Part shown: positions 19,939 through 52,776 of the stretch, piece by piece
Layout: the number at the start of each line of letters is the position of its first letter
How positions within the stretch are numbered: position 1 is the stretch's first letter
Origin: Escherichia coli
Lineage (GTDB): Bacteria; Pseudomonadota; Gammaproteobacteria; Enterobacterales; Enterobacteriaceae
Strand: one strand, 5' to 3'
Assembly (NCBI RefSeq): GCF_013122565.1
Contig: NZ_CP053258.1
Length of the DNA: 64,000 nucleotides
Notes under the pieces: model-generated
What the model was told of the DNA's origin: nothing
The model's input: the letters and a program-made list of their open reading frames with translations, nothing else
Database searches by the model: none
Program-made: the position numbers and the translations under genes

Positions 19939-19975
19939 GGTGTTGTGTCCGTTAGGTGCGGTTAATCAAATTTTT

Positions 19976-20009: not shown

Positions 20010-20152
20010 AACGGGCAATTTTACGGCCCCCGTTAATCTCAAACTATACCATTAGCACTGGAAGTTGGCACGTACAGGTGGGCAAAAAAACGAAAACTGG
20101 TCAACCAAATATCAGTTTGATTGACCAGTAAGTCTGTAGGGTAATCAGTTAG

Positions 20153-21613: not shown

Positions 21614-21693
21614 CGTAAACTCCAGAATCCGTCTTCAGAGAGTGACGGCAAGGAAGAAGGAACCGGCACGGCGCGCAGCCATGCCGGTGGATA

Positions 21694-24026: not shown

Positions 24027-24052
24027 GACCAGGAGCGTTTCGGCTCCTGGTC
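24027..24052 (-). terminator. stem-loop immediately downstream of the UvrD-like helicase gene (end of the DISARM-like operon)
   Basis: gaccaggagc / gctcctggtc perfect 10-bp inverted repeat with 6-nt loop, 17 nt beyond the stop codon. Confidence 0.5.
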
Positions 24053-24068
24053 TGTTTCGGACATATTA

Positions 24069-26183
24069 TCAGTCAGCCACTAATAGCGGGCTAGGGATAC
24101 CAGATGATGAAACAAACAGCCCTTTTACGGCACGGGTTGCAGCCACATGCAGTAACGCGCGCTCATTAAATAATGCATCACGCTGTTCAACGGGATCATC
24201 GGATGCTAATGCTTTTATTTCCGGCACAACGCCTTCGTTAATTCCCACCAGGAACACATACTGGAACTCAAGCCCTTTAATACGGTGCATCGTTGCAACC
24301 CGCACGCCAGGGCGTGCATCGCTGTCACCGCTATCATTGCCTAAATTAAATGTCTCAATTCCGGCGTCATTCAGTGCTGATGCGTAGCGGTCACAAGCAT
24401 GTTTAGTACGCGCAGTAATGCAGATATCCTGAGAACGAACCTGATTCGCCAGCAATGCCTGAATTTGCTTGACGAGCGTTGCAGCCTCTTCTTTGAAATC
24501 TGCCGCATGCGTAATCATGGGCTTTTCCCCGTGCAGTAATGACAAATAATCATTACTGGTATCCGCTTCGCCATCGAGGTTATCAACCTTCACACCAGTT
24601 AACAGCCCAACAGCAAATTGACGCGTCTCTTCTGTGGTCCGATAGTTAATCTTCAATTTTTTACTGCGACGACCACGGACGTTAATACCACACTGACCAA
24701 GAACGACCTTATTGCGATAAATACGCTGATGCCCATCCCCGACAATAAACAGATCGTTGGGCGACTCGGGAACCAGGCTGCGAATAAGAGTAAATGCCGG
24801 GGCACCGATATCTTGAGCTTCATCGACCACAATACTGCTATAAGGTAGTTGAACCTGTTTTTCTTTAAACAGAACAATAGCCTCATGCATGGCATCGCCC
24901 ATTTCGCGCAGTTTGGCACGCGCCATTTGTGCTCTGAATTCTTCAAAGACTGGCCAGATTTTCGCCCGTTGAATACGGGATAACGCTGTACCACGTCCAA
25001 CCCGGCTGACTTTGAGGTATTCCTCCCGGGTGTAAACCGCATTTGGCTGGACAACGCGTTGCCACTCTTCAGCATAGAAATTGTCAGGTAGCCCCAGTTC
25101 GGCAGGTGCCTGCTGCAAGGCATAGTTCCAGCATTTGCGTCGCCCTTCATCGCTGTCGTATACCACGCGGAAATCATAACCGTGGCGTTTTAGTTGGTCG
25201 CTCATCCAGGCATCAATGTTAACGACGTCAATACGCGCCATCTCTTCTCGCGTACACAACCGCTGGAGATTAGCGCGAATATCTGCCGCCAGGTTACGCG
25301 TAAATGTCGTGAAAAGTACCTTCTTACCGGGTTTATCTGCCAGACGCTGAGATAACCACCGCGCACGGTGCATCGCAACAACCGTTTTCCCTGTACCTGC
25401 ACCACCCAGTACTCGTACCGGACCATTAGCGGGCGACTCCACCAGTTTTCGCTGGCTCGGATGCAGAAATACACGCCATTTTTCTAAAGGCGCATTAAGC
25501 ATCTGCAACAGCTCCTGTTCATTTTCAACGACATGGAAGCGACGTTTACTTCGTTCAATCGCCTCCATAAAGTCGTTGGTATCAACAGGCTCATCACGAT
25601 GATCGTTAAACTCTTCCAGCACTTCCTGGTAATCCAGCCCTTCTGCCAGCCAGTGCAGAGGTTCCCAGGCTTCTGCTGGCATTATGCTTTCAAGTTGATT
25701 AAGCCCGGCTTCATCGGTAAGCGCCATCACCTGATCAATAAAGACAGGCGGCACACCCAGGGCCAGAATCTGTTCCGCGCTGTAAGCTGCGAAGAGTTTC
25801 GGTTTATCAACCACCGTTTCCGCTGCCGGTTTGATATAGCTAATATCAATGACCTGAATCGCGCCGGTAACCGGGTGAATCGAACAATCATGCCGCCGCG
25901 CCCAGTCGTATGCTTCGTCGTGTTTATCCACCCACATCAGCATATACAGGGCACCCTGTTCAGGTTTCAGAACAATGCCGCGATAAGTTTGATCGATTCG
26001 CACCGAATGGACATTTTTACTGCGCGCATCGTGGATCTTTTCATAGTTAAGTCCATTACTGGTCGGGTCCTGACGGAATTTGGAGATGAATTCCTGCACC
26101 TTTTTTTGCTGTGCTTTTGGGATCCGCGCGAATGCGCCCAGAAAACCATCAGAAAGTGCCACCTTGGGCGTTTGCACCGTCAT
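24069..26183 (-). CDS. UvrD/Rep-type SF1 helicase with an uncharacterized ~200-aa N-terminal domain
   Basis: 704 aa; Walker A VLGGAGTGKTVVAMHRA, motif II IVVDEAQD, C-terminal VATMHRIKGLEFQYVFLVG; ATGA overlap with the upstream gene. Confidence 0.8.
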   Translation of the reverse strand: MTVQTPKVALSDGFLGAFARIPKAQQKKVQEFISKFRQDPTSNGLNYEKIHDARSKNVHSVRIDQTYRGIVLKPEQGALYMLMWVDKHDEAYDWARRHDCSIHPVTGAIQVIDISYIKPAAETVVDKPKLFAAYSAEQILALGVPPVFIDQVMALTDEAGLNQLESIMPAEAWEPLHWLAEGLDYQEVLEEFNDHRDEPVDTNDFMEAIERSKRRFHVVENEQELLQMLNAPLEKWRVFLHPSQRKLVESPANGPVRVLGGAGTGKTVVAMHRARWLSQRLADKPGKKVLFTTFTRNLAADIRANLQRLCTREEMARIDVVNIDAWMSDQLKRHGYDFRVVYDSDEGRRKCWNYALQQAPAELGLPDNFYAEEWQRVVQPNAVYTREEYLKVSRVGRGTALSRIQRAKIWPVFEEFRAQMARAKLREMGDAMHEAIVLFKEKQVQLPYSSIVVDEAQDIGAPAFTLIRSLVPESPNDLFIVGDGHQRIYRNKVVLGQCGINVRGRRSKKLKINYRTTEETRQFAVGLLTGVKVDNLDGEADTSNDYLSLLHGEKPMITHAADFKEEAATLVKQIQALLANQVRSQDICITARTKHACDRYASALNDAGIETFNLGNDSGDSDARPGVRVATMHRIKGLEFQYVFLVGINEGVVPEIKALASDDPVEQRDALFNERALLHVAATRAVKGLFVSSSGIPSPLLVAD

Positions 26184-29100
26184 TTGTCACCTCCGGACAG
26201 ATGTTGCAATGTATTTTCGTCAATTGGCCCGAATGCAACGTGCCAACCTCTGGTTGTGAATAATGGAATAAATTCTTGATTATCAATAATCAATGCCCAT
26301 TTTTGTGATGGCCAGGCGAGATCGGCTTCTGCAATAATTTCACCCTCATCATTTTGCAATTCGTAGCCGAGAGTCGGCGCAGAGAGAGAATGAGACTGAA
26401 GCAACGCGATCTCTTCAGCGCTTAATAAGCCAAACTCAATAATCTCAGCCCAACTTTCATCAGTCTCTGGTACTGCCTCTGGCGTTGCCGAAACTTTAGT
26501 GTCAACGCTTTCCTGCGGTAAATGCACGGCTTTACGGCTGGTAAAGGTCATATCCGGCAGGAACTGTAACAGGTTTACCAGTCGCCAGAAGCCATTGAGT
26601 CCCGCTTCATAACCGTCATCCTGCGTATAGCGATCGTCAAAACAGATATGCAAACGCAGCCAGCTGCGCATTTGTGCGACGCTGGTCGTCGGTTTAATGG
26701 CTTGTTGTGGTAACACCGAAGCCAGTTCAATAAATTGCTGCGATGAGTTACAGCTATCGAGTAAACCACCAAAGACAAACGGTTCGTCTGGCAAAAGCTC
26801 TGCTAGCCGCCAGGCTGGCGCGTTTTCCTGCATTTCATAGGCATACTTTTGTTTCGTTCCCGCGTCCTGTGACTTCTTCACATCCAACCACACCCAGGCA
26901 TGTGCAGCAGCCATTCTCTGCCATAACTGCGTTCTTCCGCCCGGATCGGCGAGATAATCCAGCAGCAGTGCAAAACTGTTACGTTCCCGGAACGACGCTT
27001 CAAGGGCCGCAAAGTTGGTATCGTGAAACAGGTTATAAAACTTAGGCTGTTTCATATCCGGGTTATGCCCAAGTCCCAGGACATCCTGAACATGTTTAAG
27101 CCCAGGCTCTTTGAGATCGGCCCACGTGACTGTCCACACCCAGAAATTACCGCTATCCCGAATCGCCTGGCGTTTTTGCACATCCTCTGCGACGCTATTT
27201 TTGTGGAACGCAAAGCCATCAAGGAAAATAGCCACCGGTTTAATGGCATCAGACTGCATAAGCGGATATAGCACGTAATCCGGGCGACAAGGGATCCCCA
27301 CCGCCTCTTTAGCGCCTAAATCCACCTGAGCTTTAAGATGCCAGCTCATCATCGGTTCGCTGCGGGTGTTAATAATCCACCCAGCGCCCTGATGCGCGTA
27401 ACTGCGACTGACAATCAGGTTTTTATTTTCTTGCAGGCAGCTAATAAACCGTTTTTCCAGCTCACTGCCCATCATGGCTTCGAGGGAAATGTTTTTGATG
27501 GAATCAATTACCCGTATCGAATCTCTTGCCTGCAAAATTTTCGCCAGCAAGAGACGCGCCTGATCGCGGGAGACATACTTCATGCGCCCACGGTCACGGT
27601 AAGCGTAAACGCAACGATAACAACCATCTTTATGCGTATCATTGTTGCAACTGCATTCCACTATTGCCTGATAGGCCAGTTCAAGTAATTTCAGCAAATT
27701 GTCGGGAGTGCGCATCAGCTCTTTAAGAGAACCAGTTCCCCCCGGGACGGTATCGTAAATCACCAGATACTGCCGCCAGGATTCGCCTTCATTTTCCGGC
27801 TCGCGGTACACAACGCCTTTCAGGTGATCGACATTCCCCTTGAAGTAATGCTTAAGGCCGAGCTGGATCGCCGCCCCAAGAGAAGCCTCCACGACACGGT
27901 CATTACTGTAACTGCTTACCGGGAGCAGAATACGCAACGCTTCTGACTCCAGCTGGCGATAGAGGTAGAGATAATCTTCGAACTTCGCCTTTTCCGGTTC
28001 CGTGCGATATTTGCAGCTCAAATCATGACGTGGTTCATGATCGCGAGGACGCTGCACCATGCCGCACCCGAGGCAAACTTTAAACCCGGTTCGCTTCTTC
28101 GCTTCTCCGGCAATCATCAACTCATTGGCATCATCCGCCATTTTGCCGAAGTTGATATCCCGCAGGGTGACTTTGCTTAAAAATTCAAAACCAAACGGAA
28201 CTTCGCCTTCCTCAATCGCGTATGCCGCCGATACATCTTCTTTTTCGAAACTAACCAATAGCTGACGCTGGAAGAAAGCAGGTTCACGGCTGTCGCTCTC
28301 GTCGCTGATCTGGCTATCACGTGCGCTGGCGCGGGCATAAACCTGGCGAAGTTTCAGCAGCGTGGTTTTTTGTCCGGCATCGGCCCACCCCGGTGTGCCA
28401 CATTTCGGGCAATATTTATGCTGGTCGCCCGTCTGGTCGATATTTTCGCTGTAGTTACAGTGGCTACAGATACGCCAGTTCTCCGGCTCAGAGACCTTCA
28501 GGTCTATCTGCTCAATTTCAACTTTATGCCCACCGGCATAGAAATTATTCAGCGGAGCCAGCTCAGCCAGCGCCGTTGATGCCGGGCGTTCATATTCGAA
28601 AGTGGTGTTTTGATATTCACGCGCTTCCCCGCCTTCTTTACGCCGCCAGAGCACAGAACGTAACGTAATACCGGCTTCCGGGAAGGCGTAGTTAGGCAGC
28701 AGCCCTTCATCCGTGAGGAAATTCAGCGTTTGCTTATTGTTGATTTGATTGACCAGCGCCATCAGCGCCTGTCGTTCTGAAGTTAACTCGCGCATATCGC
28801 TATCAAAGTTTTGATCGCGCGGCGCGTTCTCCAGTTTATCGATACTGCGCTTGAGCTTATCGATGCGTGAGCGCAAAGATTTGCGATCTTCCACCAGCAG
28901 TTTTAACGCTTCTTCGATACGCTGCACCAGCGAGCGTTGTCCTGGCGCGCCCTGAAGATAAGACAACAGCTGTTGGCGAGTTTCTGCGGCAAGATCGGGG
29001 AAGATCGCCGTAAATTGTGCAGCAATCTCCGCATGATGCTGTTCGATATATCGCAGTAAGTTATACGGAAAACCCGATTTACGCCCGAACTCCAGCTCAT

Positions 29101-32100
29101 CCAGCATCTGTTTGACGTTTTTACAGATAGCGGATTCTGGTACACCGGTTTTCACCCAGTTATCCATACAAAAAGCTGCCAGCTGGCGTTCGAGAATAGC
29201 CGTTGCATTGAGGAAGACGCCAGGAGCCTGCACCTGGCCCTGCATCATCTCCAGCGGTTCTTCAAAGAAAAACTGATCGTGCGGGTTCCCTTCTGCCACG
29301 GTAATGTTTAACGCGTTACCATCTTTACGACCGGCGCGACCAATACGTTGCAAGTAGTTGGCCTGAGCAGGTGGGACAGAACAGAGTAAAACGGTGGAAA
29401 GATCCCCAACGTCAATACCCATCTCCAGCGTCGGTGTTGCCGACAACAGGTTGATATTCCACGGTTGGTTGCCGCGGTAGAACGATTTTTCGGTGGCTTC
29501 GCGATCTTCACGGCTAAGCAGCCCCGTGTGTTCTGCGCCCTGCACGCGCGCGATGTCCATGTTCTCCCAACGCCAGGTCGCCATATTGTCGACTTCCTGG
29601 TAACGACCTTCACAACGTAAAGAGAGACAAGGCGCATTACGCCACTGCCAGCCTTGATCGGCCGGAGCCCGGACAACCTCACGGCAACATGAGCAATTAA
29701 GCTGAACGACGTCACGGCTCACCACCAGCGCCGAAGGCACCAGTCCCCAGGCTTCACGCCCTTTGGTGTCAAAATCTTTTACTACTCCGGCTATTTTCAA
29801 CGCCGTAAACAGGCGTCGTAACACCGTTTCCGCAACGCTACTGATAAACAGATTATTGCCGTTACTCAGCGTGCGATTGATCCAATGCTGATACCAACTG
29901 GGGTTAGACTTCGCGCCAATCAGGCGATGGAAACCATTAATTTTTTCAAACGACGCATAAGCCGGTTTACGCGTTTTCGGACCGATAGAAGGCATATAGC
30001 GCGAGGTACGCTCTTTTTGCGTCATCATAAAGGTCGTGCCATCACGGCGATAACTTTCGAACGCCGGATGCATAACGGCCCCGGCCTGGCGTTGATACCA
30101 GATAACCCCCAGCGCCAGGTGCGCTACCTGCTCGACGCTCACACCGGACATCTCATCACCCAGCTCTTCACAAAGCTGTTGATGCAGGGCGGTAATTGCC
30201 GGATTAAAGCGTTCTTTATCCACTCCGGCAACGGCATAACCGGTGGCTTCCAGCGTACGTCCGATACGCGCGCGCAGGGTAAATTCGCTGTACACCTCCC
30301 AGTCGAGGCGCAGGGAAACCAGCTCCGGCAGATCGGAGTTCTCCGCCAGTTTGCCTTCATTTTTCAGCGTCTGATAATCATTCAGCCACTGCATATTTGG
30401 TGCGATGAAGTTCGCTGCAAAATGAGCATCGTCCGGTGAACGTTCACGCGTTTGTTGGCAAACACGCGCCGCGAACGCATCCAGCGGTAATGTCTCTTTT
30501 TCGCCAAGAACACTGGCGATTTGCCCACGAATCATCAGCGGCCAGGTACGGGCAGTAAAGAAGCTGGCACGATGCGCGGCGTCTTGTACCGAGTCAGAAA
30601 ACGTAATCAGCTTTTTATGTTCGTTGAACTGGCTGCCATAAAGCTGGTGAATCATCACCGCCGACAAACTAGCAGCCCGTGACCCCAGGATCGAAATCCC
30701 CTGTTTGCTGTTGCAGTACGGGCATTCATTAGCAAACTCCAGCTCGTCCTTACGCTCTTTGAGCATATCCGGGATCAGTACCTGCAACAGTTCCGTATGA
30801 CCGCAATATCCACACTGGACGCTGGACTGTCGGTTCAGTTTCAGACAGGTAGGGCATAGTTTCTGGTGTGCGCCACTGACCGCTTTTTCGTTGTTATCCG
30901 GGAAAGCAAGGACGATGGAGCGCCCTTTTTCAAAGAACTGGCGATAAATGCCGTCGAGGTCTGTTTCCAGCTGAACGCTTTGCCCATGACGCAGGCTGGC
31001 CCAGCCGGTTGCATGGCAGTCACGGCAGTGGATAACCGGCAAATAGTGTTCGCGATCTTCCACCGCCACATCATCGGCAAACACCAGTCTCGGCGTTTTC
31101 GCCACGCTGGCGACCAGACGACGCATCTCACGAAGCCACAACTGGGAACGCAGTTGCACAAACGGCAACACCGGGCGCGCTTTCTTCGCCTGGAGACGTT
31201 TTTGCCGATCGTGGTCCGTTTCCGGTACTTCGAGACGTGCCTGCGCGATCAGCGCCAGAATGCTTTGCAGCACGCTTCGGGCATGGTCGGCGCTTTCTGC
31301 CAGCATGACCTGGAGATTTTCCAGACACTCTCGTTCAGAGAGGATACCGCCTTGCAGATCATGGAGTAAGACATGCATCACGCTGTGGCGGCGTAACAGT
31401 GACCCCAGCGCAATACGCTTTTCACGCCCGTCGTCGCTCTCCAGATCGTCCGGAAGCTGCAAGTCGCTGTCGGGGAACCACAAAGGAATTTGCCCGTTGA
31501 GATACGCCACCGGGGTAGCGTAACTCTGCGGGTCCAGGGCCGAAGCGACCTCCGGCCCCGGATACTGACTGTACGCAATGGCGTAATCCTGCAAGTACTC
31601 CGCTGCCGTGTAGCGATCTTCGCGAATAACGGCGTCATCGGTAAACGGCTGGTCAAAGATTGTTTTTGCGTAATCGAGCAGTTGCCCCAGTTCGTCGCCG
31701 ACGGTAGCTGATGTCCCGACGCAGGCGAATCGTTGGTTATCCACACCTATGTGATGCTTCAGACGTCGCACCAGACAGGCCAGATCCGACCCCTGCGCGC
31801 CATCAAACGTATGCAATTCATCCACGACCAGGTAACGCAATGAACCGGGCTGGTTGTAACGCCAGAGCGGCTGATCGCCAGGGCGCATCAGCAGGTAGTC
31901 GAGCATTTTGTAGTTGGTCAACAGGATGTCCGGCGGGCTTTCGCGCAGCGTGTGCTTGCAGGTAATGACCTTTTCTGCCGACATTTTTTTGCTGGGTTCG
32001 ATTTCGCTGTCGCCGACAAACAGGCCGACGGTCACCTTGCCATGCAGTTGTGGATCGCTGGCGATGGTTTTGGCGAAACGGCTGGCCTGATCGGTTGCCA

Positions 32101-32521
32101 GGGCGTTCATCGGGTAGATGATAATCGCTTTAACCCCGGCTTGTGACGCGCCCGCGCAGTGGTTGAGCAGCGGGAACATAAAGCATTCTGTTTTACCGGA
32201 GCCGGTACCGGTAGCGACCAGCGTCGGCTGTGGCGCGTCGCTTCCCAGACGCTGAAATGCCCGGGCCTGATGCGCGTGCGGCGGGAACGGCAGCGTCAGA
32301 TTAGGGAAGAAATTCAGCGGTAAGTCACTTTTACGAAACGGCAACTGGGCGGAAAGGTATGGTCCTTTCAGCAGCGTTTCGGGCTGGGCCAGAAATTGCT
32401 CCAGCATTGAGACATTATCGTTATTCTCACCGTTAAACAGCGGGCTGTTTAGCGGGAACGCCGCCCGTAAAAAGGCGGCAACGCTGTCGGCGACCTGCCG
32501 ACTGACAACGGACGGCAACAT
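26180..32521 (-). CDS. giant helicase with C-terminal Cys-rich Zn-ribbon region (DUF1998-like); fused DrmA/DrmB-like, DruE-like
   Basis: 2113 aa; Walker A GTGSGKTECF, DEAH-type motif II VVDELH, helicase C region (QRIGRAGRKDG), several CxxC pairs (CSHCN...CPKCG, CLGCG, CYRCVYAY); 1-nt stop/start overlap with the methyltransferase gene. Confidence 0.8.
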   Translation of the reverse strand: MLPSVVSRQVADSVAAFLRAAFPLNSPLFNGENNDNVSMLEQFLAQPETLLKGPYLSAQLPFRKSDLPLNFFPNLTLPFPPHAHQARAFQRLGSDAPQPTLVATGTGSGKTECFMFPLLNHCAGASQAGVKAIIIYPMNALATDQASRFAKTIASDPQLHGKVTVGLFVGDSEIEPSKKMSAEKVITCKHTLRESPPDILLTNYKMLDYLLMRPGDQPLWRYNQPGSLRYLVVDELHTFDGAQGSDLACLVRRLKHHIGVDNQRFACVGTSATVGDELGQLLDYAKTIFDQPFTDDAVIREDRYTAAEYLQDYAIAYSQYPGPEVASALDPQSYATPVAYLNGQIPLWFPDSDLQLPDDLESDDGREKRIALGSLLRRHSVMHVLLHDLQGGILSERECLENLQVMLAESADHARSVLQSILALIAQARLEVPETDHDRQKRLQAKKARPVLPFVQLRSQLWLREMRRLVASVAKTPRLVFADDVAVEDREHYLPVIHCRDCHATGWASLRHGQSVQLETDLDGIYRQFFEKGRSIVLAFPDNNEKAVSGAHQKLCPTCLKLNRQSSVQCGYCGHTELLQVLIPDMLKERKDELEFANECPYCNSKQGISILGSRAASLSAVMIHQLYGSQFNEHKKLITFSDSVQDAAHRASFFTARTWPLMIRGQIASVLGEKETLPLDAFAARVCQQTRERSPDDAHFAANFIAPNMQWLNDYQTLKNEGKLAENSDLPELVSLRLDWEVYSEFTLRARIGRTLEATGYAVAGVDKERFNPAITALHQQLCEELGDEMSGVSVEQVAHLALGVIWYQRQAGAVMHPAFESYRRDGTTFMMTQKERTSRYMPSIGPKTRKPAYASFEKINGFHRLIGAKSNPSWYQHWINRTLSNGNNLFISSVAETVLRRLFTALKIAGVVKDFDTKGREAWGLVPSALVVSRDVVQLNCSCCREVVRAPADQGWQWRNAPCLSLRCEGRYQEVDNMATWRWENMDIARVQGAEHTGLLSREDREATEKSFYRGNQPWNINLLSATPTLEMGIDVGDLSTVLLCSVPPAQANYLQRIGRAGRKDGNALNITVAEGNPHDQFFFEEPLEMMQGQVQAPGVFLNATAILERQLAAFCMDNWVKTGVPESAICKNVKQMLDELEFGRKSGFPYNLLRYIEQHHAEIAAQFTAIFPDLAAETRQQLLSYLQGAPGQRSLVQRIEEALKLLVEDRKSLRSRIDKLKRSIDKLENAPRDQNFDSDMRELTSERQALMALVNQINNKQTLNFLTDEGLLPNYAFPEAGITLRSVLWRRKEGGEAREYQNTTFEYERPASTALAELAPLNNFYAGGHKVEIEQIDLKVSEPENWRICSHCNYSENIDQTGDQHKYCPKCGTPGWADAGQKTTLLKLRQVYARASARDSQISDESDSREPAFFQRQLLVSFEKEDVSAAYAIEEGEVPFGFEFLSKVTLRDINFGKMADDANELMIAGEAKKRTGFKVCLGCGMVQRPRDHEPRHDLSCKYRTEPEKAKFEDYLYLYRQLESEALRILLPVSSYSNDRVVEASLGAAIQLGLKHYFKGNVDHLKGVVYREPENEGESWRQYLVIYDTVPGGTGSLKELMRTPDNLLKLLELAYQAIVECSCNNDTHKDGCYRCVYAYRDRGRMKYVSRDQARLLLAKILQARDSIRVIDSIKNISLEAMMGSELEKRFISCLQENKNLIVSRSYAHQGAGWIINTRSEPMMSWHLKAQVDLGAKEAVGIPCRPDYVLYPLMQSDAIKPVAIFLDGFAFHKNSVAEDVQKRQAIRDSGNFWVWTVTWADLKEPGLKHVQDVLGLGHNPDMKQPKFYNLFHDTNFAALEASFRERNSFALLLDYLADPGGRTQLWQRMAAAHAWVWLDVKKSQDAGTKQKYAYEMQENAPAWRLAELLPDEPFVFGGLLDSCNSSQQFIELASVLPQQAIKPTTSVAQMRSWLRLHICFDDRYTQDDGYEAGLNGFWRLVNLLQFLPDMTFTSRKAVHLPQESVDTKVSATPEAVPETDESWAEIIEFGLLSAEEIALLQSHSLSAPTLGYELQNDEGEIIAEADLAWPSQKWALIIDNQEFIPLFTTRGWHVAFGPIDENTLQHLSGGDK

Positions 32522-35500
32522 CAGGCGCTCTCCTTATCTTGTGCAAAGAACGCCCAGGCCACTTTGTAGTCGTCTTCGCGATCCGGCTTGATAAACGGTG
32601 CCTGCCAGGTGACGGTACGGCGCTCGCCTTCGTCGCTGCGGGTATAGTCATCAAAGGTGACGCTGACGGTACCAGTTTTAAGATGTTTGACATCATCCCA
32701 GCCGATGGCTTGATCGGTGCAGTCACCGCCGGTCCACTCCGGGCTGTCGACGTTAAAGACAAAGCCGTTTTTCAGGTCAGCTTTACGCGCGGTACGCGGC
32801 AGACCGACGCCCACCAGCCCTTTGCTTGGGGTAAAGATGATGCGGCCGTTTTGGTCGTACCAGGTGTCCGCTTCGTACTGACGCATCACCGGGAACTGAA
32901 CGCGATAAATGGTAAGCAGTTCTTCGAGGGTTAACCCCAGCGCCTGCGCCACCAGTACGTCGATTTCCACCAGCGCCTGACGACGACTGTAGTCAGAGCG
33001 TAAGGCGCAGTTACGCTGCCACTCTGGGGTCAGATTGGTGAAGAAATCCTGGGGGAGCTGCGGGAGATCGCGGCTCCAACGCTGGGTGTTGAAATCTGGG
33101 GTGTAGCAGGATTGCCAGAGATCGGCATAACTTCTCACTAGCGATACAAGGCATAGAGCCCGACTATGTAGTGCTGTACGATAAGCATCATTTGTAAGTA
33201 CTGGCAGTTGGTTAATAAGAGAGGTATTGGCATGCCCCATACCCGTACTTTTCACACGATAATCCAACGGTACAGAAAGAGTCATCGAAAAATAGTCAAG
33301 CAATAATTGAGTATCTTTAAACGCCGTTCCAAGACAAGTATTTATATGGCTCACACCTGGTGGCACAATTGTTGTAATTAATGTTCTTTCAGATGATGGA
33401 CCTATCATTTCACGATTAACAAAACGATAATAGTCCGTCACCTTCCTCGGCTCGTCTTCATCCTGCTCTTTCCACGAAACCCGTGGGGTGCGCTTTGCAT
33501 ACTCCTGTGCATCACAGGCTGGAATATAGTTAGTGCGCGGCAAATAGTCGTCGGGCAGAGTTAGCAAGTCCAGGCAGTCATAATGTCCTTTCTCTGTGCA
33601 AATTTCTCTCGGCGTTTTATAAAGCGGTGTTCCAACATAGAAGTGCGGACCAGACAAAATCCATTGGGATGCGTCTTCCGGGAATTGGGTATGCCGTTCG
33701 ATTGTGCCATCACTTTGTTGATTTGTTTCATGCCACATTTCAAGAGACAAATATTGCCCCTGCAAATCCCCCAGCCGTTTAGGTTGCTTAGCGAATTTTT
33801 CAAGTACAGAAACAAGCGGTTCAGCATGAAGCGCTGGGAGTCGAGCTTCAAGATCCGGCGTTCCCTCTTCATCATAAAGAGTGGCAAATAGTGCAAGCCG
33901 TTCCATTCCAACGGTCAAAATACGGCTTTGATGCCCCGCTTCATTCCAGGAACCTGTTTCGTCATCTTTAATGCCGCCAACTTCACCGGAACCATCATGC
34001 GCAAGACAAAGCTCGATCGTTTTGGCTGAGAAAAGGTTTGCAATATTGATAAAGCCGACAGATTGATTCGGTGAAGCCGTATAAATATTAATGCTGAATT
34101 TAACCCTGTGACCAATAGGGAAAAGCATATGCTGATTCTGAAACTGAAAATGTGCCCTCAGTCTCGGATACACTGCCGCACGAAGCTGCCCGCCTTTCGG
34201 GTCATCATAAATCCCTTCCGGGTGCAGGAAACCTGACACGCCTTTCTGCGCCCCTAAGCGCCAGGCCTGAGGCAGGAAGCATTTATACAAGTTGGTCTGC
34301 ACCCCGCGCAGTACCGGGTAGTTCTGCTGCGCATTGAGGAAGTTTTGCATCCCTTCACAGCCTTCATACTCGCTGCGCCAGGCCGCTTCCAGCGCCGGGA
34401 TCTGGTTGAAGGTATCAATACGCAACGTTGCCAGCTTCGATGCACTCAGCTTACGTAGCACAAATTCCGGCTCGTAATCACCCAGCACGCCCGCTTCCTG
34501 CCATTCCACTTTCAGCCACGGCGGGTTTCCGAGCATCAGGTCAAAACCGCCGCGCTCGGCAAACAGGTCGCAGAACTCCAGATCCCAGTGGAAGAAACGG
34601 TGCTGCTTTCTCAGGGCATCGACAATCGCCAGACGCGGTAAATGACGGAACAACACCTCAGTTTTCAGACGACCTGCGCCGGAAAACAGTGAAGACTCTT
34701 CTCGCAGCAGGCCTTCTTCGGCAAACAGATCACCAGTGGTGTGCTCCGCAACTTCAGTGACTTTTTCCGTAATTACAATCCCGTCGAGCAGGGTTTCAAT
34801 CTCAAACAACCAGGTGCCGCGATCCGGTAACTCATCGGCTTTGTCGATCGGCCAGAACCACAGCGCGCACCAGTAGTCCATTACCCAACGCAGCTTCTGG
34901 TAGGCGCTGTTATCTTCAAGACGACCACTGAAGGTTTCATCTTTACTGCTCAGCGAAGAACGCGTCTGCTCGCTGTTTTCTGCCGGCCACACCGGGTAGC
35001 TGTCGGCGGTTTTCAGACGTTCTGCTTTAAGTTGCTGGCGATAGGTGTTCCACAGTGCTTCCACCTTTTCGCTGATACGCTGCACATCAGCAATCTCATG
35101 CCCGGCAAAGCTTTTAATAAACTCTTTGCGCCAGCTGTCCAGCGCTTTGAAGTCATCCGGATAACGCTGCTTAACGGTTTTATCGCTGTAGTTAGCCATA
35201 CCGCCGTCGGGCAGCAGGAAGTGGAAAATCTGCGTCTCTTCACGCGGCGTGTTCATCGCCAGCTCGACCGGTTCGCTGTTAAGCCAGCTCGGATCTTTGG
35301 CTTTTTTGTAGGTCAGTTCGCTCTTGTTGAACACCTGACGGCGCGCGCCCACCAGCGAGTTACCGCAGTGCAACTGGTAACCAAACCACGGTACAAACGC
35401 ATCGCCACTAATGGCGTTCAGCCACAGTGACACTTCCGCCAGTTCCACCGCCACCGGGTTTAAGTCCACGCCGAAAACGTTGTTGTCGGCAATGTACATT

Positions 35501-37437
35501 TTCACCCGCTGTAACTCCTGGGTGTAACGATCCTGCGGAATACGGCGACCTTCCGCCTGCTGCTTATGGAACAGATACGCTTCCGCCAGCTGGTTGATGG
35601 CTTCGTTAAGGAACGCCGCGCTGCCCATCGCCGGTTCGCACACGGTGAGGTTTAAGATGGCGTCGGCTTTGGCGTGCGGATCGCTAATGGGATCAATCTG
35701 CTCCTTAAACAGTTCTTTCAGAGCATATTTAACCAGTGAGCGGGTCAGCACTTCCGGGGTGTAATAAGATGCAGATTTCTCACGGTCGCGCCCGGCCATA
35801 CGGTAGATAAAACTGCCTTTGCGGTGAATGCGCAGACTGCCGTCTTTCTCGTAGACCTTCTCGTCTTCGTGGTATTTGCCAATCTCATCCTTACTGACGA
35901 AGTAACCCGTCTCCAGCTCGTTAAACTCTTCCCCGGCTTTCTTCACCTCGTAGAGATCTTCGCTGGCGAAGAATCCGCGATAGGAGAGCAGCGCCTCATA
36001 CACCGCACCCAACTGGTTGATACCCAACTGGCGATAAGATATACGTCCACGGCGGTTAAAGCGCCCTTTGCCCGGGCGGCTTAACGACATCGCCTGGATA
36101 ATCTGTTGCAGGGTTTCGTTACGGAATACCACGCGGTTAAGAATGCGGGTGTTGTTGGCATCGAAAAGATGACTTTCCAGACGCGGGACGCTGAACTGAT
36201 GACTATGGATGGTGATCCGGTCGCCGCTCTCCAGGTCACTCTGCATTTTCACGCCGCCGTTGTAGCCTTCGCGCACCAGTTTAAACAGCATATTCAGGCT
36301 GTCGTGGAAGTAGCGCCCGTTGCGATCTTCTTCGCTGGTCAGCGGGATCATCTCCAGATCGCGCAACGTTTCCAGGCTGTAGCCCTGTAGATAGGTTTTG
36401 GCGGTCATTGGCGCATAACCCAGCTCCGGGCGCGCTTCAATGTAGAACAGGAACAGCAGGCGGTACATGTAACGCAGACATTCGCGGCTCAGTTCATCCG
36501 GGTCCACCGCACGGTTACCGGTATAGTTTGCCAGGCCACGGTCGATCAGATAATGCATCGCTTCGTTGCCCAGCAACTCAATGCTTTCGCGCAGGGCATA
36601 TTTCAGATCTTCCGAAACACCAAACGCATGTTTGTGCGAATTGTCATCCAGCGAGTCAAGATAAGGTGCCCCACTGCCCGGCAGCAGAGAATCTTTATGT
36701 AGCAACACCGCCGTCGCTTTCAGCGTATCCGTTTCACGACGACTTAAAATCTCTTCAAAATCAAAACGTAGCAGACGGTTTTGCGCCCACTTAGTACGGT
36801 CCAACAACAATAGCTGACGGTTACCGAGCAGCAGCACAAAACGCGGCGGTTCATTTTGGGTGAAGACCGCCGTAGAGAGCAGATCCTGCCAGCTGCGATA
36901 TTCACCGTTGGCTTTTTTGCGCAGGCTGTCGCGCTTATGTTTGTCGGTATCCGCCGGGAATTGCGCGGTCAGTAAGGAGAGCGCCAGCGGATCCAGCGTT
37001 CCTTCTTCCTGATCGTGTGCTTCAACAATCCACAGCCACGGGCTACCGTCAGTGCTGTTGTAACGCGCCAGTACCGGCAGTGGTGTATCGTCATCCAGCA
37101 TTTGGATCTGCGGCGTAATTTCGTAGCCCAGCGCCTTTAACAATGGCTGCCAGCGATTACGTTGATCGGCCAGACGCTGCGGGATCTGACGCTGTTTTTC
37201 GTGCTCGGCAAGTTTGCGGAAAAACTCAGTCGCCAGACTGTTAAACTGGTTCCACGGAGCGCGGTATCCCGGCTCCACGTCTTTGCCCTGTTCACGAGCG
37301 GCACGTTCCGCTTCACGCGCTGCATTTTCCTGGGCTATCCAGGGTTCCAGCACATCGCGGATATCACTGGTGAAAACCTCACCCAAATAATGGTTAGAGT
37401 AAAATTCGTTTTCGTTATTAATACCGACCAGCGCCAT
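32521..37437 (-). CDS. large N6-adenine DNA methyltransferase (Eco57I/PglX/DrmMI-like, gamma-class)
   Basis: 1638 aa; AdoMet motif I CEPAMGSAAFL and catalytic motif IV GNPPW; starts 2 nt after the SNF2 gene stop, with a GGAGGG SD inside the SNF2 coding end. Confidence 0.8.
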   Translation of the reverse strand: MALVGINNENEFYSNHYLGEVFTSDIRDVLEPWIAQENAAREAERAAREQGKDVEPGYRAPWNQFNSLATEFFRKLAEHEKQRQIPQRLADQRNRWQPLLKALGYEITPQIQMLDDDTPLPVLARYNSTDGSPWLWIVEAHDQEEGTLDPLALSLLTAQFPADTDKHKRDSLRKKANGEYRSWQDLLSTAVFTQNEPPRFVLLLGNRQLLLLDRTKWAQNRLLRFDFEEILSRRETDTLKATAVLLHKDSLLPGSGAPYLDSLDDNSHKHAFGVSEDLKYALRESIELLGNEAMHYLIDRGLANYTGNRAVDPDELSRECLRYMYRLLFLFYIEARPELGYAPMTAKTYLQGYSLETLRDLEMIPLTSEEDRNGRYFHDSLNMLFKLVREGYNGGVKMQSDLESGDRITIHSHQFSVPRLESHLFDANNTRILNRVVFRNETLQQIIQAMSLSRPGKGRFNRRGRISYRQLGINQLGAVYEALLSYRGFFASEDLYEVKKAGEEFNELETGYFVSKDEIGKYHEDEKVYEKDGSLRIHRKGSFIYRMAGRDREKSASYYTPEVLTRSLVKYALKELFKEQIDPISDPHAKADAILNLTVCEPAMGSAAFLNEAINQLAEAYLFHKQQAEGRRIPQDRYTQELQRVKMYIADNNVFGVDLNPVAVELAEVSLWLNAISGDAFVPWFGYQLHCGNSLVGARRQVFNKSELTYKKAKDPSWLNSEPVELAMNTPREETQIFHFLLPDGGMANYSDKTVKQRYPDDFKALDSWRKEFIKSFAGHEIADVQRISEKVEALWNTYRQQLKAERLKTADSYPVWPAENSEQTRSSLSSKDETFSGRLEDNSAYQKLRWVMDYWCALWFWPIDKADELPDRGTWLFEIETLLDGIVITEKVTEVAEHTTGDLFAEEGLLREESSLFSGAGRLKTEVLFRHLPRLAIVDALRKQHRFFHWDLEFCDLFAERGGFDLMLGNPPWLKVEWQEAGVLGDYEPEFVLRKLSASKLATLRIDTFNQIPALEAAWRSEYEGCEGMQNFLNAQQNYPVLRGVQTNLYKCFLPQAWRLGAQKGVSGFLHPEGIYDDPKGGQLRAAVYPRLRAHFQFQNQHMLFPIGHRVKFSINIYTASPNQSVGFINIANLFSAKTIELCLAHDGSGEVGGIKDDETGSWNEAGHQSRILTVGMERLALFATLYDEEGTPDLEARLPALHAEPLVSVLEKFAKQPKRLGDLQGQYLSLEMWHETNQQSDGTIERHTQFPEDASQWILSGPHFYVGTPLYKTPREICTEKGHYDCLDLLTLPDDYLPRTNYIPACDAQEYAKRTPRVSWKEQDEDEPRKVTDYYRFVNREMIGPSSERTLITTIVPPGVSHINTCLGTAFKDTQLLLDYFSMTLSVPLDYRVKSTGMGHANTSLINQLPVLTNDAYRTALHSRALCLVSLVRSYADLWQSCYTPDFNTQRWSRDLPQLPQDFFTNLTPEWQRNCALRSDYSRRQALVEIDVLVAQALGLTLEELLTIYRVQFPVMRQYEADTWYDQNGRIIFTPSKGLVGVGLPRTARKADLKNGFVFNVDSPEWTGGDCTDQAIGWDDVKHLKTGTVSVTFDDYTRSDEGERRTVTWQAPFIKPDREDDYKVAWAFFAQDKESA

Positions 37438-37439
37438 GA

Positions 37440-40298
37440 TTAACCCTCCGCTCCGGTGATAACAGCAATTACCTGAATGTAGGGTTCTTTTTCAGTCGTC
37501 ATGGTGTCCTCAATCCATTCGATATAGCTGTCAAAATTGTGTTCGATTTCGCGTTGTCTCTGCTCTTTACGGCTCTGCTTGACTGACAATTGCTGTTTGT
37601 TATCGGCAAAATCCAGCTCAAGTTGGCTCAACTGCCGCCCACGCAAAACGTCCAGCTTTTGCAGATGCTCGTTCAGTTGCTGGTTAATGTGCGTTTCAAA
37701 CGCATTCCGATCATGGATAAATACCTCCCGGGCATGCGCAATAGCCGCTTCCAGTAAATCCTGCTGGCGCTGGTGATTACGATCTTTACCGCCGCTGTTA
37801 GTCAGATTGTTACTCAACTGCGGATGACGTTGTAAAAACTCAGCGAATGGCTGACTGCCGATTAGCGATTCACGGTCAAAGCTCACCACTATCCACGGGT
37901 TCACCATCGGATGTGATTTACGGTTCGGGAATAACCCGGAAAGAATGAAGTGATCTTCATCGGGTTCAAGCAGGTATGGCAGACGGATAACCGGTGCCTG
38001 ATGACGACCAAAAGCCGAAGAGATTTTATCGTCCAGCCACTGCACTACCGGGTTGATTTGCCAGAGATACTGCACATCGGGCCAGGCATGTTGCTCACCG
38101 CGAGCGCGCGCAATCGCGTCGGTGATGACGGTTTTATCCTGACTTAAATAGAGCTGCCAGTTCTCCGGGGCAATTTCAGGCGGTAGCTGGTTGAAGCGGC
38201 GGCGTAACTCCTCCGGTGCCACCAGCGACAAGGTATTATCAGGCAAGGTTTCATACTGGATAGTTTGACCACTGGCTTTCAGGTAACCCAATGCTCTTTC
38301 ACAGTACGCCTGTTCGCTGGCAAACAAGCTGGTGTCTGTTTCGGTAACCATTGAGGCATCGCTGGAAACCGCACTGCATATTTCGCCAAACAGATCATGT
38401 TCGGCGCTTTCCGAGACGTTGCTGTTCAGCAGTTGATCAAACAGGCTGGCACCATCATCCTGCATCATGAACTCTGCAACCTGCTCTTCTTCCTCTTCCT
38501 GGGTAAATTTGCCGGTAAACTCCGAACTGTCCCCAATGTTCTTCTGCGCCTGTTCGTCTTTGTTGATCAACACTTCCAGTACGCGCATATCGCCATTGAT
38601 CTGTGGTTCGCTGGCCTCGGTAAGCAGATAGCGGATTTGAGGCTGATGTTTTTGCCCATAGCGGTCAATACGCCCGTTACGTTGCTGGAATACCATCAAC
38701 GACCACGGAATATCAAAGTGAATCATTTTGTGGCTAAGGTGATGCAAGTTGATCCCTTCAGATGCCACATCCGAACAAACCAGAAGACGCAACGGAGACT
38801 GCGTTTTACCAAAGGCTTCTACGGTTTCCATCAATACCGTATCGCCCTGATCGCCGCGCAGCGTGGCGATCTGGTCATCTTTCAATTTCAGATCCGCTCG
38901 CAGTTGCTGTTCGAGGAACTCCAGCGTTTTAATACTTTCGGTGAAGATCACCAGGCGATCTTCCGTGTTATTGGCTTTCCAGGCGAGGTCTTTTCGGATG
39001 GTGTCGAGCAGCAACTGGTATTTGCTAAACTGGCTGGCATCAATGTTATTCAGCGCCAACAGCAATGACTCCAGTTCGTTGATCTGGCTCTGGCTATTAT
39101 GATCTTTACGGCTCTCAAGACGCTTCAGACGATTCGCCACTACGCTGGCACACGCCATCGGGCTGGAAAATAGCGCTTTTTCGAGGGTTATCTTGAACAG
39201 ACGACCTTTGTTAGACTGGGCCTGTTCATCGTCATCATCACGGAACTGGCTCTCAACCAGGCGACGGTATGCTTCTTCTTCGGCACCAGATGCCAGGCGA
39301 GTCAGTTTGACAATATTGCGCTCGGGGAACTCGCCGGACATCTGATCTTTCACGTCTTTTTTGAAGCGACGGACAACCAGATTTTTATCGGCAAAATCGG
39401 CGTATTCATACTCTTTCGGGTTGGCGATCGCCGTCGGGTCAAGCATGTTCATCAGGCTGGCAAAACTTTCAGCCTTACCATCATGCGGTGTTGCTGAAAG
39501 CATAATCAGCGTATCGCTGCGCCCGGCGAGCAGTTTTGCCAGTTTACTGCGTAACGAACTGGTTCCACGTTCTGCGACGTTATGGGCCTCATCAATGACA
39601 ATAATATCCCACCAGGCATTTTCCAGATGGTGACGATATTCAATGTCTTGTTTCAGCGTATCGATGGAGATAATGGTCTTGTCAAAATAGTGGAACGGGT
39701 TGTGGTTGGTTGGGATGCGGTTACGCACCTTTTGTAAACCAGCAGAATCCAGGCGGGTCAATGGGATCGCAAAACGGCTCCAGAACTCCTTCTGGAATTG
39801 TGTCAGCATCGATTTAACCGCCAGAACCAGAATACGTTTTCCGCGCCCACGACGGATCAGTTCCGAAACCAGAATACCGGCTTCCAGCGTTTTACCCAGA
39901 CCGACAGCGTCGGCAATGAGTATCCGCTGGCGCGGTTGTGCCAGCGCCATCCGCGTAGGATCGAGCTGAAACGGCATGGAATCCATCGCCGCCAGATGAC
40001 CAAAATGGACTTTACTGTCTGTCGGTACGCGTTGGCGTAACTGACTTTCAATATACAACTGTGCCGCTTGATAATTGGCGGATTCATCTTCCACCAAATG
40101 CGTTTTTGCGGGATCAAGGATCTCTACTTTTTGTTCCAGTTTGGTCAGAAATAACCCTTCTTTACCGCGCACCAGCTCTGAAATACCATCGCAGGTCAGC
40201 AAATACCCACCATCACCACTGTCATCCGCCCGGCGAATACGCCATTCGGCATCACGAATAACCACCCGCATACCAGGTGCATAATTTTGCTTATTCAT
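37440..40298 (-). CDS. SNF2-family helicase/ATPase (DrmD-like)
   Basis: 952 aa; Walker A DAVGLGKTLEAG, DEAH-box IVIDEAHN, helicase C motifs (HFDIPWSLMVFQQRNGRIDRYGQ). Confidence 0.8.
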   Translation of the reverse strand: MNKQNYAPGMRVVIRDAEWRIRRADDSGDGGYLLTCDGISELVRGKEGLFLTKLEQKVEILDPAKTHLVEDESANYQAAQLYIESQLRQRVPTDSKVHFGHLAAMDSMPFQLDPTRMALAQPRQRILIADAVGLGKTLEAGILVSELIRRGRGKRILVLAVKSMLTQFQKEFWSRFAIPLTRLDSAGLQKVRNRIPTNHNPFHYFDKTIISIDTLKQDIEYRHHLENAWWDIIVIDEAHNVAERGTSSLRSKLAKLLAGRSDTLIMLSATPHDGKAESFASLMNMLDPTAIANPKEYEYADFADKNLVVRRFKKDVKDQMSGEFPERNIVKLTRLASGAEEEAYRRLVESQFRDDDDEQAQSNKGRLFKITLEKALFSSPMACASVVANRLKRLESRKDHNSQSQINELESLLLALNNIDASQFSKYQLLLDTIRKDLAWKANNTEDRLVIFTESIKTLEFLEQQLRADLKLKDDQIATLRGDQGDTVLMETVEAFGKTQSPLRLLVCSDVASEGINLHHLSHKMIHFDIPWSLMVFQQRNGRIDRYGQKHQPQIRYLLTEASEPQINGDMRVLEVLINKDEQAQKNIGDSSEFTGKFTQEEEEEQVAEFMMQDDGASLFDQLLNSNVSESAEHDLFGEICSAVSSDASMVTETDTSLFASEQAYCERALGYLKASGQTIQYETLPDNTLSLVAPEELRRRFNQLPPEIAPENWQLYLSQDKTVITDAIARARGEQHAWPDVQYLWQINPVVQWLDDKISSAFGRHQAPVIRLPYLLEPDEDHFILSGLFPNRKSHPMVNPWIVVSFDRESLIGSQPFAEFLQRHPQLSNNLTNSGGKDRNHQRQQDLLEAAIAHAREVFIHDRNAFETHINQQLNEHLQKLDVLRGRQLSQLELDFADNKQQLSVKQSRKEQRQREIEHNFDSYIEWIEDTMTTEKEPYIQVIAVITGAEG

Positions 40299-40488
40299 CG
40301 GTTTTTCTGTCTATTTGGGGCAGTGGCGGTAACGTCATCCTGAAAAATGTGGCGCGGCACACTGCGATAAAAAAGAGGGCCTTAAAGATATCATGAAGGC
40401 CCCCGGCAAAGTGACAAAATGGGAGGGAATGCGCATAAATTGCGCATGATTTTCAAACAAAAATTATTAAAAAGTGAGCTGGGTCAAC

Positions 40489-40514
40489 TCCCCTGGAAGA
40501 TATCCCCAGGGGAG
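40489..40514 (-). terminator. stem-loop between druE and the DISARM-like operon
   Basis: ctcccctgg / ccaggggag 9-bp inverted repeat 8 nt past the druE stop; a T-rich stretch follows about 15 nt later on the transcribed strand. Confidence 0.4.
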
Positions 40515-40521
40515 CAATTAT

Positions 40522-50195: not shown

Positions 50196-50406
50196 CCTGC
50201 CTTCCTTTGATACAATTCGTAACAGGTTACTATCATCATAAAAAAGCTCAACCCGATGAACTCGCTAAAAATGAGACAAATCATTTATATCTCGAAAAAA
50301 CTTGTTACAATCATGAGCGCTACACCGAACTTAACCATATAAATTATGTGTGTTTTGTTTATTTTTTAAACGATTACAACTATCCATTATTTACACAGGT
50401 ATCAAA

Positions 50407-52059: not shown

Positions 52060-52065
52060 TCGATC

Positions 52066-52773: not shown

Positions 52774-52776
52774 GAG

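Follow-up and report, generated by a model that had tools for sequence, protein, structure and literature searches.

A four-gene operon of an Escherichia coli chromosome assigned to ARMADA type II anti-phage defence, with two variable blocks in its methyltransferase

ARMADA (disARM-related antiviral defence array) was named and experimentally tested in 2025, and its type II was reported from E. coli NCTC 12900, EDL933, and ATCC 8739 (Bell et al. 2025, PMC12458937; bioRxiv 10.1101/2025.09.22.677730). Protection against phages by ARMADA type II has been shown in three E. coli strains; the four arm genes alone, acting directly and non-abortively, protect against many siphoviruses as well as T5-like, Vequintavirus, and T7-like phages, while the hypermodified T-even phages escape (PMC12458937; 10.1101/2025.09.22.677730). 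Deletion of any single arm gene abolishes protection, and the effect of deleting armD in the native host is weaker than that of the other arm deletions. Protection is also lost in ATPase-motif mutants of ArmA, ArmC, and ArmD and in the ArmB NPPW mutant (N971A), whereas ArmD D454N and ArmB G605A (SAM site) cause a partial loss only; uninfected armB deletion mutants grow like the wild type, yet their defence is lost (PMC12458937; 10.1101/2025.09.22.677730). The main texts of both sources give no methylation motif or methylome, the word 'methylation' occurring 0 times in both, and sequence searches of the PDB detect no ARMADA structure.

The window analysed here, a stretch of 64,000 nucleotides from an E. 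coli chromosome, contains four co-directional minus-strand open reading frames of 952, 1638, 2113, and 704 aa (Table 1), which in our judgement constitute, with a probability of about 93%, an intact armABCD operon of the ARMADA type II system. Chance features are excluded by the length of these reading frames and by HMM E-values down to 1e-281. An earlier note on this DNA had described one co-directional operon, and all three of its junctions read as it stated: armA and armB are separated by 2 nt (...TAA TC ATG), armB and armC overlap by 1 nt (TGATG), and armC and armD overlap by 4 nt (ATGA), start/stop overlaps by which the arm genes are predicted to be coupled translationally. The spacer between druE and armA, in which the terminator and promoter sites are consensus matches only, probably serves armABCD as a promoter region of its own, and the four ARMADA genes gave defence when they were cloned 'under its native promoters' (PMC12458937; 10.1101/2025.09.22.677730).

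Table 1. Positions of the arm genes, their domains and variable blocks, and the neighbouring defence genes in the window
Feature	Position	Strand	Description
armA	37440..40298	(-)	SNF2/RapA/BrxHII-like (DrmD-like) ATPase, 952 aa
armB	32521..37437	(-)	PglX/DrmMI-like N6-adenine DNA methyltransferase, 1638 aa
armB variable block 1	33823..34152; aa ~1096-1205	(-)	putative target-recognition module
armB variable block 2	33097..33417; aa ~1341-1447	(-)	putative target-recognition module
armC	26180..32521	(-)	YprA/MrfA-family DEAH helicase-nuclease (nuclease predicted), 2113 aa
ArmC Vsr/DUF559-like PD-(D/E)xK nuclease domain	27107..27469; aa ~1685-1805	(-)	predicted from Vsr-like fold and invariant residues
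ArmC terminal ~75-aa domain	26234..26458; aa 2022-2096	(-)	homologous to ZorE C-terminal domain
armD	24069..26183	(-)	GajB/UvrD-like SF1 helicase with N-terminal RelE/ParE-fold domain, 704 aa
ArmD RelE/ParE-fold domain	25839-26183; aa ~1-115	(-)	RelE-like fold match
druE-armA spacer	40299..40521	(-)	223 nt; hairpin and T-run terminator-like sites, sigma-70-like promoter match
druE	40522-46845	(-)	PADLOC DruE3 2182 bits, full length
druH	46836-50195	(-)	PADLOC DruH3 2549 bits, full length
Zorya type II zorA2, zorB2, zorE	50350..53880	(+)	divergently transcribed; NCBIfam equivalogs

The assignment is carried by orthology to experimentally validated loci. With the O157:H7 Sakai copy as the O157 reference, the identities amount to 99.8% for ArmA (ECs_5261), 90.2% for ArmB (ECs_5262), 99.6% for ArmC (ECs_5263), and 99.9% for ArmD (ECs_5264), and against ATCC 8739, which was among the strains tested, ArmA reaches 99%. 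The eight residues that the founding paper mutated all recur at the same positions, namely K136 and D236 of ArmA, G605 and N971 of ArmB, K110 and D234 of ArmC, and K266 and D454 of ArmD. The gene order of ARMADA II, in which a BrxHII/SNF2-like helicase is followed by a PglX-like methyltransferase, a YprA-like helicase, and a GajB-like helicase, is matched in the window. Moreover, ArmC unites a YprA-family helicase and MZB/DUF1998 in one polypeptide with Cys-rich inserts and carries, at the sequence level, the C-terminal Vsr-type PD-(D/E)xK nuclease of the ARMADA II helicase, while ArmD has the RelE-like domain at the N-terminus of its GajB-like helicase. The operon is thus a near-identical copy of a system that is already known rather than a discovery, and the suggestion that it might be an undescribed variant falls, an identical operon having been established under the name of ARMADA type II. 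The armABCD genes occur in 534 of 5,426 complete E. coli genomes (~10%), including those of EHEC O157:H7, where ARMADA is reported as the dominant phage barrier (PMC12458937; 10.1101/2025.09.22.677730), and the system therefore matters for phage therapy.

The domain calls made earlier, of an SNF2 helicase, an NPPW adenine methyltransferase, a DEAH helicase with DUF1998/MZB, and a UvrD helicase, were all recovered by Pfam and motifs. ArmA is matched by SNF2-rel_dom, ResIII, and Helicase_C and possesses the Walker A K136 and the DEAH D236, and ArmD is matched by UvrD-helicase, AAA_19, and UvrD_C across aa 241-693, a helicase region that includes K266 and D454. In ArmC, DEAD (84-278, RecA1, with K110 and D234), Helicase_C (993-1066, approximately RecA2), and MZB/DUF1998 (1549-1638) were found, together with nine CxxC motifs and a Cys-rich insert after RecA1 with CxxC at 499, 556, 570, and 600.

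These same calls had led to the view that the operon is an atypical DISARM class 1 with DrmD, DrmMI, and a fused DrmA/B and with no DrmC, a view that is compatible with the PADLOC matches of ArmA to DrmD (1e-99) and of ArmB to DrmMI (2e-57) and with the DUF1998/MZB region of ArmC. In the NCBIfam DrmD equivalog NF038317, however, ArmA reached 349.2 bits, below the curated cut-off of 610, with only aa 104-405 aligned; ArmC lies much nearer to DruE3 (1e-104, a partial match of 347 bits) than to DrmA (4e-14); and one 2113-aa reading frame encodes helicase and DUF1998 together, no separate DrmA and DrmB genes being present. The nuclease domain of ArmC is Vsr-like and not PLD, the PLD nuclease DrmC was not found, an extra RelE-UvrD gene is present, and in the published YprA phylogeny ARMADA forms its own clade beside Druantia (PMC12458937; 10.1101/2025.09.22.677730). 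The claimed match to DISARM class 1 is accordingly given up as very improbable. The alternative description as a DISARM/Druantia hybrid has fared better, in that ARMADA was presented by its naming authors as the 'missing link' between DISARM and Druantia (PMC12458937; 10.1101/2025.09.22.677730).

ArmC is the largest protein of the operon. Its nearest solved structures in a PDB search are DruE 9tu7 (4.5e-48), a 'Helicase' entry 9wae (1.6e-25), and YprA 6znp, and its identity to the neighbouring DruE is only 23-34%. The reported absence of a PLD is borne out, since the HxK(x)4D motif is lacking in all four Arm proteins and no PLD Pfam match was obtained. The "missing" nuclease of the operon is the predicted Vsr-like PD-(D/E)xK domain at the C-terminus of ArmC, in which E1689, D1748, D1768, G1769, H1773, D1780, and R1784 are invariant. 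Beyond it, the terminal domain of ArmC and that at the C-terminus of ZorE are homologous, the former showing 35% identity to aa 279-347 of the window's ZorE (BLASTP, E 1e-10) and a match to the PADLOC ZorE model at 1e-9; the homology is supported by phmmer as well.

ArmB contains NPPW at aa 971-974 and a SAM-binding motif around G605, and the adenine-methyltransferase families Eco57I, MmeI_Mtase, and N6_Mtase are all matched weakly in it. By far its strongest match, 1e-281 over nearly the full length, is to the PADLOC 'type IIG RE-MTase' model (REase_MTase_IIG) PDLC03614, which might suggest that ArmB is a simple type IIG restriction-modification enzyme and that the three helicases are unrelated neighbours. 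This reading is the least credible of those considered: Pfam, PDB sequence searches, and a scan for HxK(x)4D turned up no nuclease domain or motif in ArmB, a protein with an uncharacterised N-terminal stretch of 540 aa; start/stop overlaps couple the four arm genes; and the defence requires all four of them (PMC12458937; 10.1101/2025.09.22.677730). The name of the model probably reflects a bulk REBASE-style classification of large PglX/YeeA-like methyltransferases. The claim that the operon is not BREX-like holds, for the PglX NCBIfam scores of 25-28 bits lie far below the cut-offs of 500-900 and neither PglZ nor BrxC is present among the ORFs of the array.

Comparison of 11 alleles revealed that ArmB varies only in two modular blocks, both of them located downstream of NPPW. 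Block 1 shows 41-87% identity across the alleles, while its flanks are about 99% identical; block 2 is either 100% or else 34-75% identical between alleles. The combinations of the two blocks are uncoupled, indicating independent reassortment. From this pattern, the blocks are probably target-recognition modules. For the whole variable region of the window's ArmB, no match above 86% identity was found in the 5,426 complete E. coli genomes, and this block combination is rare. As far as searched, the main text of the ARMADA papers contains neither the block variation of ArmB, nor the rarity of the block combination, nor the domain common to ArmC and ZorE.

A tentative proposal, to which we would give somewhat less than even odds, is that the two independently exchangeable modules of ArmB set the specificity of an epigenetic self/non-self ARMADA II system, the window's rare block combination specifying a methylation/restriction motif unlike that of the O157:H7 allele, and, separately, that ArmC and ZorE have in common a C-terminal module for docking or DNA binding. 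In the mechanism that goes with the main assignment, ArmB would provide sequence recognition via the two blocks and would mark host DNA by N6-adenine methylation. Like BREX PglX and type IIG/ISP enzymes, it would be required for restriction as well; armB deletion mutants grow normally yet lose defence. ArmA, as an SNF2 translocase, might join ArmB in acting on phage DNA that is unmodified and either incoming or replicating; ArmC, a YprA-type helicase of presumed 3'-to-5' polarity, would load on the single-stranded or forked DNA so exposed, cutting it with its predicted Vsr-like domain; and ArmD, with its UvrD/GajB-like helicase and RelE-fold domain, may assist the processing or serve as an auxiliary effector.

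Alternatively, the discrimination could be independent of methylation, so that ArmC, like DruE and DrmAB, would sense phage DNA structures (ssDNA, 5' overhangs, forks) and ArmB would be structural or regulatory and not self-marking. ArmC is indeed closest to DruE, which the 2026 Druantia III work reports to be a 3'-to-5' helicase with ssDNA-binding activity, and the authors of the EDL933 paper favour structural recognition, expecting ArmC to recognise DNA structure and not sequence; the merely partial defect of G605A and the lack of toxicity of the armB deletion point in the same direction (PMC12458937; 10.1101/2025.09.22.677730). On the other hand, N971A abolishes defence and T-even phages with modified DNA escape (PMC12458937; 10.1101/2025.09.22.677730), and the modular hypervariability of ArmB, typical of sequence-specificity domains, can hardly be accounted for unless sequence is recognised, when the rest of the operon is more than 99% conserved. 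We therefore regard a purely structural discrimination as rather unlikely, albeit a serious contender. The block map of ArmB and the ArmC residues E1689, D1748, D1768, H1773, and D1780 constitute concrete experimental handles on the ARMADA mechanism.

Druantia III lies directly upstream of armABCD and Zorya II (zorABE) beyond it, which are the published neighbours of ARMADA. The druHE pair (40522..50195, minus strand), whose region matches the NCBIfam STY4851/ECs_5259 family (1.5e-295) and Pfam YjiV_N and MZB, is a separate Druantia type III system outside armABCD, and the NCBIfam scores of Zorya II (1139.9, 443.8, and 696.1) all exceed their cut-offs (700, 400, and 600, respectively). The earlier note did not contain DruE and DruH upstream, Zorya II beyond them, the C-terminal nuclease domain of ArmC, or the RelE-like domain of ArmD. 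ArmC was also considered as the DruE3 of Druantia III and rejected, its partial 347 bits standing against the full-length 2182 of its neighbour, with which the sole DruH pairs.

It might be asked whether armABCD is autonomous or forms with druHE one six-gene unit in which two paralogous giant helicases work as a single machine. All six genes point the same way, druE and armA being just 223 nt apart, the two systems synergise, and they co-occur in most genomes having either (PMC12458937; 10.1101/2025.09.22.677730). Nevertheless, armABCD alone on a BAC protects, the phage spectra differ between single-system deletions, and seventeen E. coli strains harbour ARMADA II alone (PMC12458937; 10.1101/2025.09.22.677730); in addition, plasmid pPSJ-12_1 bears an intact armABCD next to a truncated druE pseudogene, and the druE-armA spacer has terminator-like and promoter-like sites. 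A single six-gene machine is thus highly unlikely, and armABCD is treated as a system of its own; the ArmC/ZorE C-terminal domain may be a common module that aids the reported cooperation in the Zorya-Druantia-ARMADA array.

Among the known systems, BREX type 1 resembles ARMADA in its SNF2/BrxHII-like helicase and in the NPPW of its PglX-like methyltransferase, and its genes for PglZ, BrxC, BrxA, and BrxB are not in ARMADA. In BREX, as in ARMADA, defence depends on the methyltransferase, and cells survive without it. The canonical set of DISARM class 1 comprises DrmD, DrmMI, DrmA, DrmB, and DrmC, the PLD nuclease DrmC being often present; an SNF2 helicase, a PglX-like N6-adenine methyltransferase, and a DUF1998 helicase are common to it and ARMADA, and both are presumed to be DNA-targeting and non-abortive. 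The two TRDs of type I HsdS would be the analogue of the two ArmB blocks in an epigenetic reading. The helicase core of ArmD matches the GajB models of Gabija at 2.5e-36, whereas no GajA partner stands beside ArmD and its N-terminal RelE-fold domain has no match to any PADLOC family, GajB models included. Druantia III is, like ArmC, built on a giant YprA-family helicase-nuclease with MZB, and its DruE is the best PADLOC and PDB match of ArmC; DruE, however, carries tandem PLD domains where ArmC has the Vsr-like domain, and its partner is DruH, while ArmC is paired with SNF2, methyltransferase, and UvrD genes. With regard to the published ARMADA II loci, the array of the window is located between uxuA and nanM, whereas in Sakai it lies on the leuX/SpLE6 side of nanS; the site differs also from the tRNA-Phe/tRNA-Leu MGE sites of the ARMADA paper (PMC12458937; 10.1101/2025.09.22.677730), and the 64-kb window has no tRNA genes. 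ArmB departs from the O157 allele in the two variable blocks, with 36-50% identity there, while gene order, protein lengths, and the eight mutated residues are alike in the window and in the published loci.

The four-gene operon armABCD, which encodes ArmA to ArmD, is ARMADA type II (disARM-related antiviral defence array), a system already described, named and experimentally validated, and not the undescribed variant that had been proposed from the sequence: an operon identical to this one and already carrying a system name was among the grounds for refutation given in the earlier note, and two preprints of 2025 describe exactly this array (PMC12458937; 10.1101/2025.09.22.677730). The operon of E. 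coli NCTC 12900 gives protection, which is abolished by removal of any one of the four genes and by the substitutions K136A and D236N in ArmA, N971A in ArmB, K110A and D234N in ArmC, and K266A in ArmD, while only partial loss results from G605A in ArmB and D454N in ArmD (PMC12458937); the same was shown for z5899-z5902 in O-island 172 of EDL933 (10.1101/2025.09.22.677730). All 8 of the 8 residues mutated in PMC12458937 were found at identical positions within the expected motifs, namely GLGK136T and D236EAH in ArmA, MG605SAAF and N971PPW in ArmB, GSGK110T and D234ELH in ArmC, and GTGK266T and D454EAQ in ArmD. Identity to ECs_5261-5264 of O157:H7 Sakai, annotated inside SpLE6, reaches 99.8% (ArmA), 90.2% (ArmB), 99.6% (ArmC) and 99.9% (ArmD), and ArmA is 99% identical to its counterpart in ATCC 8739.

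When 5,426 complete E. coli genomes were searched by megablast, 534 of them contained the 16.2-kb operon, and 23 of the matching places are plasmid-borne. On the 84-kb E. coli plasmid pPSJ-12_1 (NZ_AP027623.1), positions 14001-32520 hold an intact armABCD beside a truncated druE pseudogene, surrounded by IS elements and capsule/rhamnose biosynthesis genes; therefore, ARMADA II also travels on plasmids without functional Druantia. As a separate observation, the 90%-identity protein cluster that contains ArmA is represented by a 2104-aa DruE, despite the absence of BLAST similarity between the two proteins. This clustering is probably due to chaining through genes called as fusions or fragments (P0011, 1112 aa; P0013, 1637 aa), and what looks like a database artefact could mislead cluster-based counts.

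Coordinates of the operon and of other features in the window
Feature	Position	Strand	Description
armA	37440-40298	minus	ORF, 952 aa
armB	32521-37437	minus	ORF, 1638 aa
armC	26180-32521	minus	ORF, 2113 aa
armD	24069-26183	minus	ORF, 704 aa
ArmB variable region	33097-34152		aa ~1096-1447
ArmC C-terminal domain	26234-26458	minus	aa 2022-2096
ZorE partner segment	53611-53817	plus	aa 279-347
druE-armA spacer	40299-40521		223 nt
Island borders	~23220 and ~54061		
CP4-like right flank	57278-62849	minus	ORFs
Pentapeptide-repeat protein	2909-5071	plus	720 aa
Inverse-autotransporter adhesin	7637-12877	plus	1746 aa

The defence operon armABCD in the window is real and intact, and its limits had been drawn correctly. 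Its junctions are exactly those read in the earlier note: armA and armB are 2 nt apart, armB and armC overlap by 1 nt (TGATG), and armC and armD overlap at ATGA. The protein assignments of that note were likewise confirmed by Pfam and motif evidence: ArmA is an SNF2 helicase (SNF2-rel_dom, ResIII, Helicase_C); ArmB is an adenine methyltransferase with NPPW at aa 971-974 and weak matches to Eco57I, MmeI_Mtase and N6_Mtase; ArmC unites a giant helicase and a DUF1998-like region in one protein (DEAD 84-278, Helicase_C 993-1066, MZB/DUF1998 1549-1638) with nine CxxC motifs; and ArmD carries a UvrD core at aa 241-693. The claim of a missing PLD nuclease stood, as a motif scan found no HxK(x)4D in any of the four proteins, but the nuclease thought absent is a Vsr-like domain fused to the giant helicase in ArmC. 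This domain and the RelE-like N-terminal domain of ArmD, both invisible to Pfam, were each confirmed by separate checks.

Directly upstream of armA, on the same strand, lie full-length DruH (2549 bits against PADLOC DruH3; 1.5e-295 against the NCBIfam STY4851/ECs_5259 family) and DruE (2182 bits against PADLOC DruE3; Pfam YjiV_N and MZB), which constitute Druantia type III; beyond them, divergently oriented, ZorA2, ZorB2 and ZorE each exceed the curated NCBIfam cut-off and constitute Zorya type II. The druE-armA spacer harbors a strong inverted repeat immediately past the druE stop (CTCCCCTGG...CCAGGGGAG). It also has a T-run preceded by a GC hairpin, as well as a sigma-70-like match, and these features suggest that transcription of armABCD is at least partly independent.

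The Zorya-Druantia-ARMADA array is situated between uxuA and nanM, and uxuA, uxuB and uxuR, downstream of armD, encode proteins exactly matching E. coli entries QJU25710-QJU25712. The occupied site normally holds gntP, the fim operon (fimH-fimB) and nanC, none of which is in the 64-kb window, and type 1 fimbriae may be missing from their usual locus in this strain. The uxuA-side junction is common to nine complete genomes; in Sakai and PapRG-06-5 the array sits on the opposite side of nanS. Beyond nanM/nanS, the right flank matches a CP4-like island carrying an AbiEii/AbiGii toxin, DUF4942, a CbtA/YeeU toxin-antitoxin pair, RadC and DUF932, and is a second defence/TA cargo block adjoining the array. 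The pentapeptide-repeat protein and the adhesin (intimin/invasin-like, IatC-type) are unconnected with armABCD.

The remaining interest lies in the block structure of ArmB and in the mechanism of ARMADA. ArmB differs from other alleles only within its variable region, with ~99% identity elsewhere. Across 11 alleles, the variation falls into two independently reassorting blocks (~1096-1205 and ~1341-1447): seven of the alleles, the window's included, share a block 2 of 100% identity, yet their differing block-1 types are only 41-81% identical, and other alleles display the converse pattern. No match above 86% identity to the whole variable region was found among the 5,426 complete genomes, the best being pPSJ-12_1 (85.5%). 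Both blocks lie downstream of NPPW, where the target-recognition domain of MmeI-like and PglX enzymes sits, and the variation likely reflects shuffling of target-recognition modules. The passages searched of 10.1101/2025.09.22.677730 place island diversity mostly in armB, and neither localise nor interpret it there.

Defence by near-identical loci is direct and non-abortive, and synergises with Druantia III (PMC12458937; 10.1101/2025.09.22.677730); it depends on intact ATPase motifs in both ArmA and ArmC, on Walker A in ArmD and on NPPW in ArmB (PMC12458937). T-even phages escape, and uninfected arm deletion mutants grow as wild type (10.1101/2025.09.22.677730). ArmB would recognise a sequence and mark self by N6-adenine methylation, and would also be needed for restriction, by analogy with PglX in BREX; ArmA would translocate on, or remodel, unmodified DNA, which ArmC would unwind and then cut via its Vsr-like domain. 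DruE, the nearest characterised relative of ArmC, binds ssDNA and unwinds 3'-to-5' according to work on Druantia III. ArmD would be auxiliary; armD deletion in the native host has a weaker effect than the other arm deletions (10.1101/2025.09.22.677730). The main rival is that DNA structure is sensed independently of methylation. PMC12458937 and 10.1101/2025.09.22.677730 report no methylation motif, and the word 'methylation' is absent from both main texts. A PDB sequence search detected no ARMADA structure, its best match being DruE (9tu7).

The final ~75 aa of ArmC share homology with the tail of ZorE that follows its HNH domain (35% identity, E 1e-10, against ZorE of the same island). This common domain, which is not present in DruE, could be a docking or DNA-binding module; ZorE is not mentioned in the main text of PMC12458937.

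Compared with known systems, the DISARM class 1 match proposed in the earlier note had to be abandoned: with 349 bits, ArmA stays below the cut-off of 610 set for the NCBIfam DrmD equivalog, ArmC matches DrmA at only 4e-14 versus 1e-104 for DruE models, and armABCD has neither a PLD protein nor a separate DrmB. The exclusion of BREX in that note proved correct, with 25-28 bits on PglX models against cut-offs of 500-900 and neither PglZ nor BrxC. Membership in Druantia was rejected as well, since a DruH partner is missing and ArmC is only 23-34% identical to the adjacent true DruE. A plain type IIG enzyme was judged very unlikely despite a PADLOC type IIG model over ArmB at 1e-281; Pfam and PDB sequence searches found no nuclease domain in ArmB, and, against a lone enzyme of this type, all four genes are needed for defence (PMC12458937; 10.1101/2025.09.22.677730).
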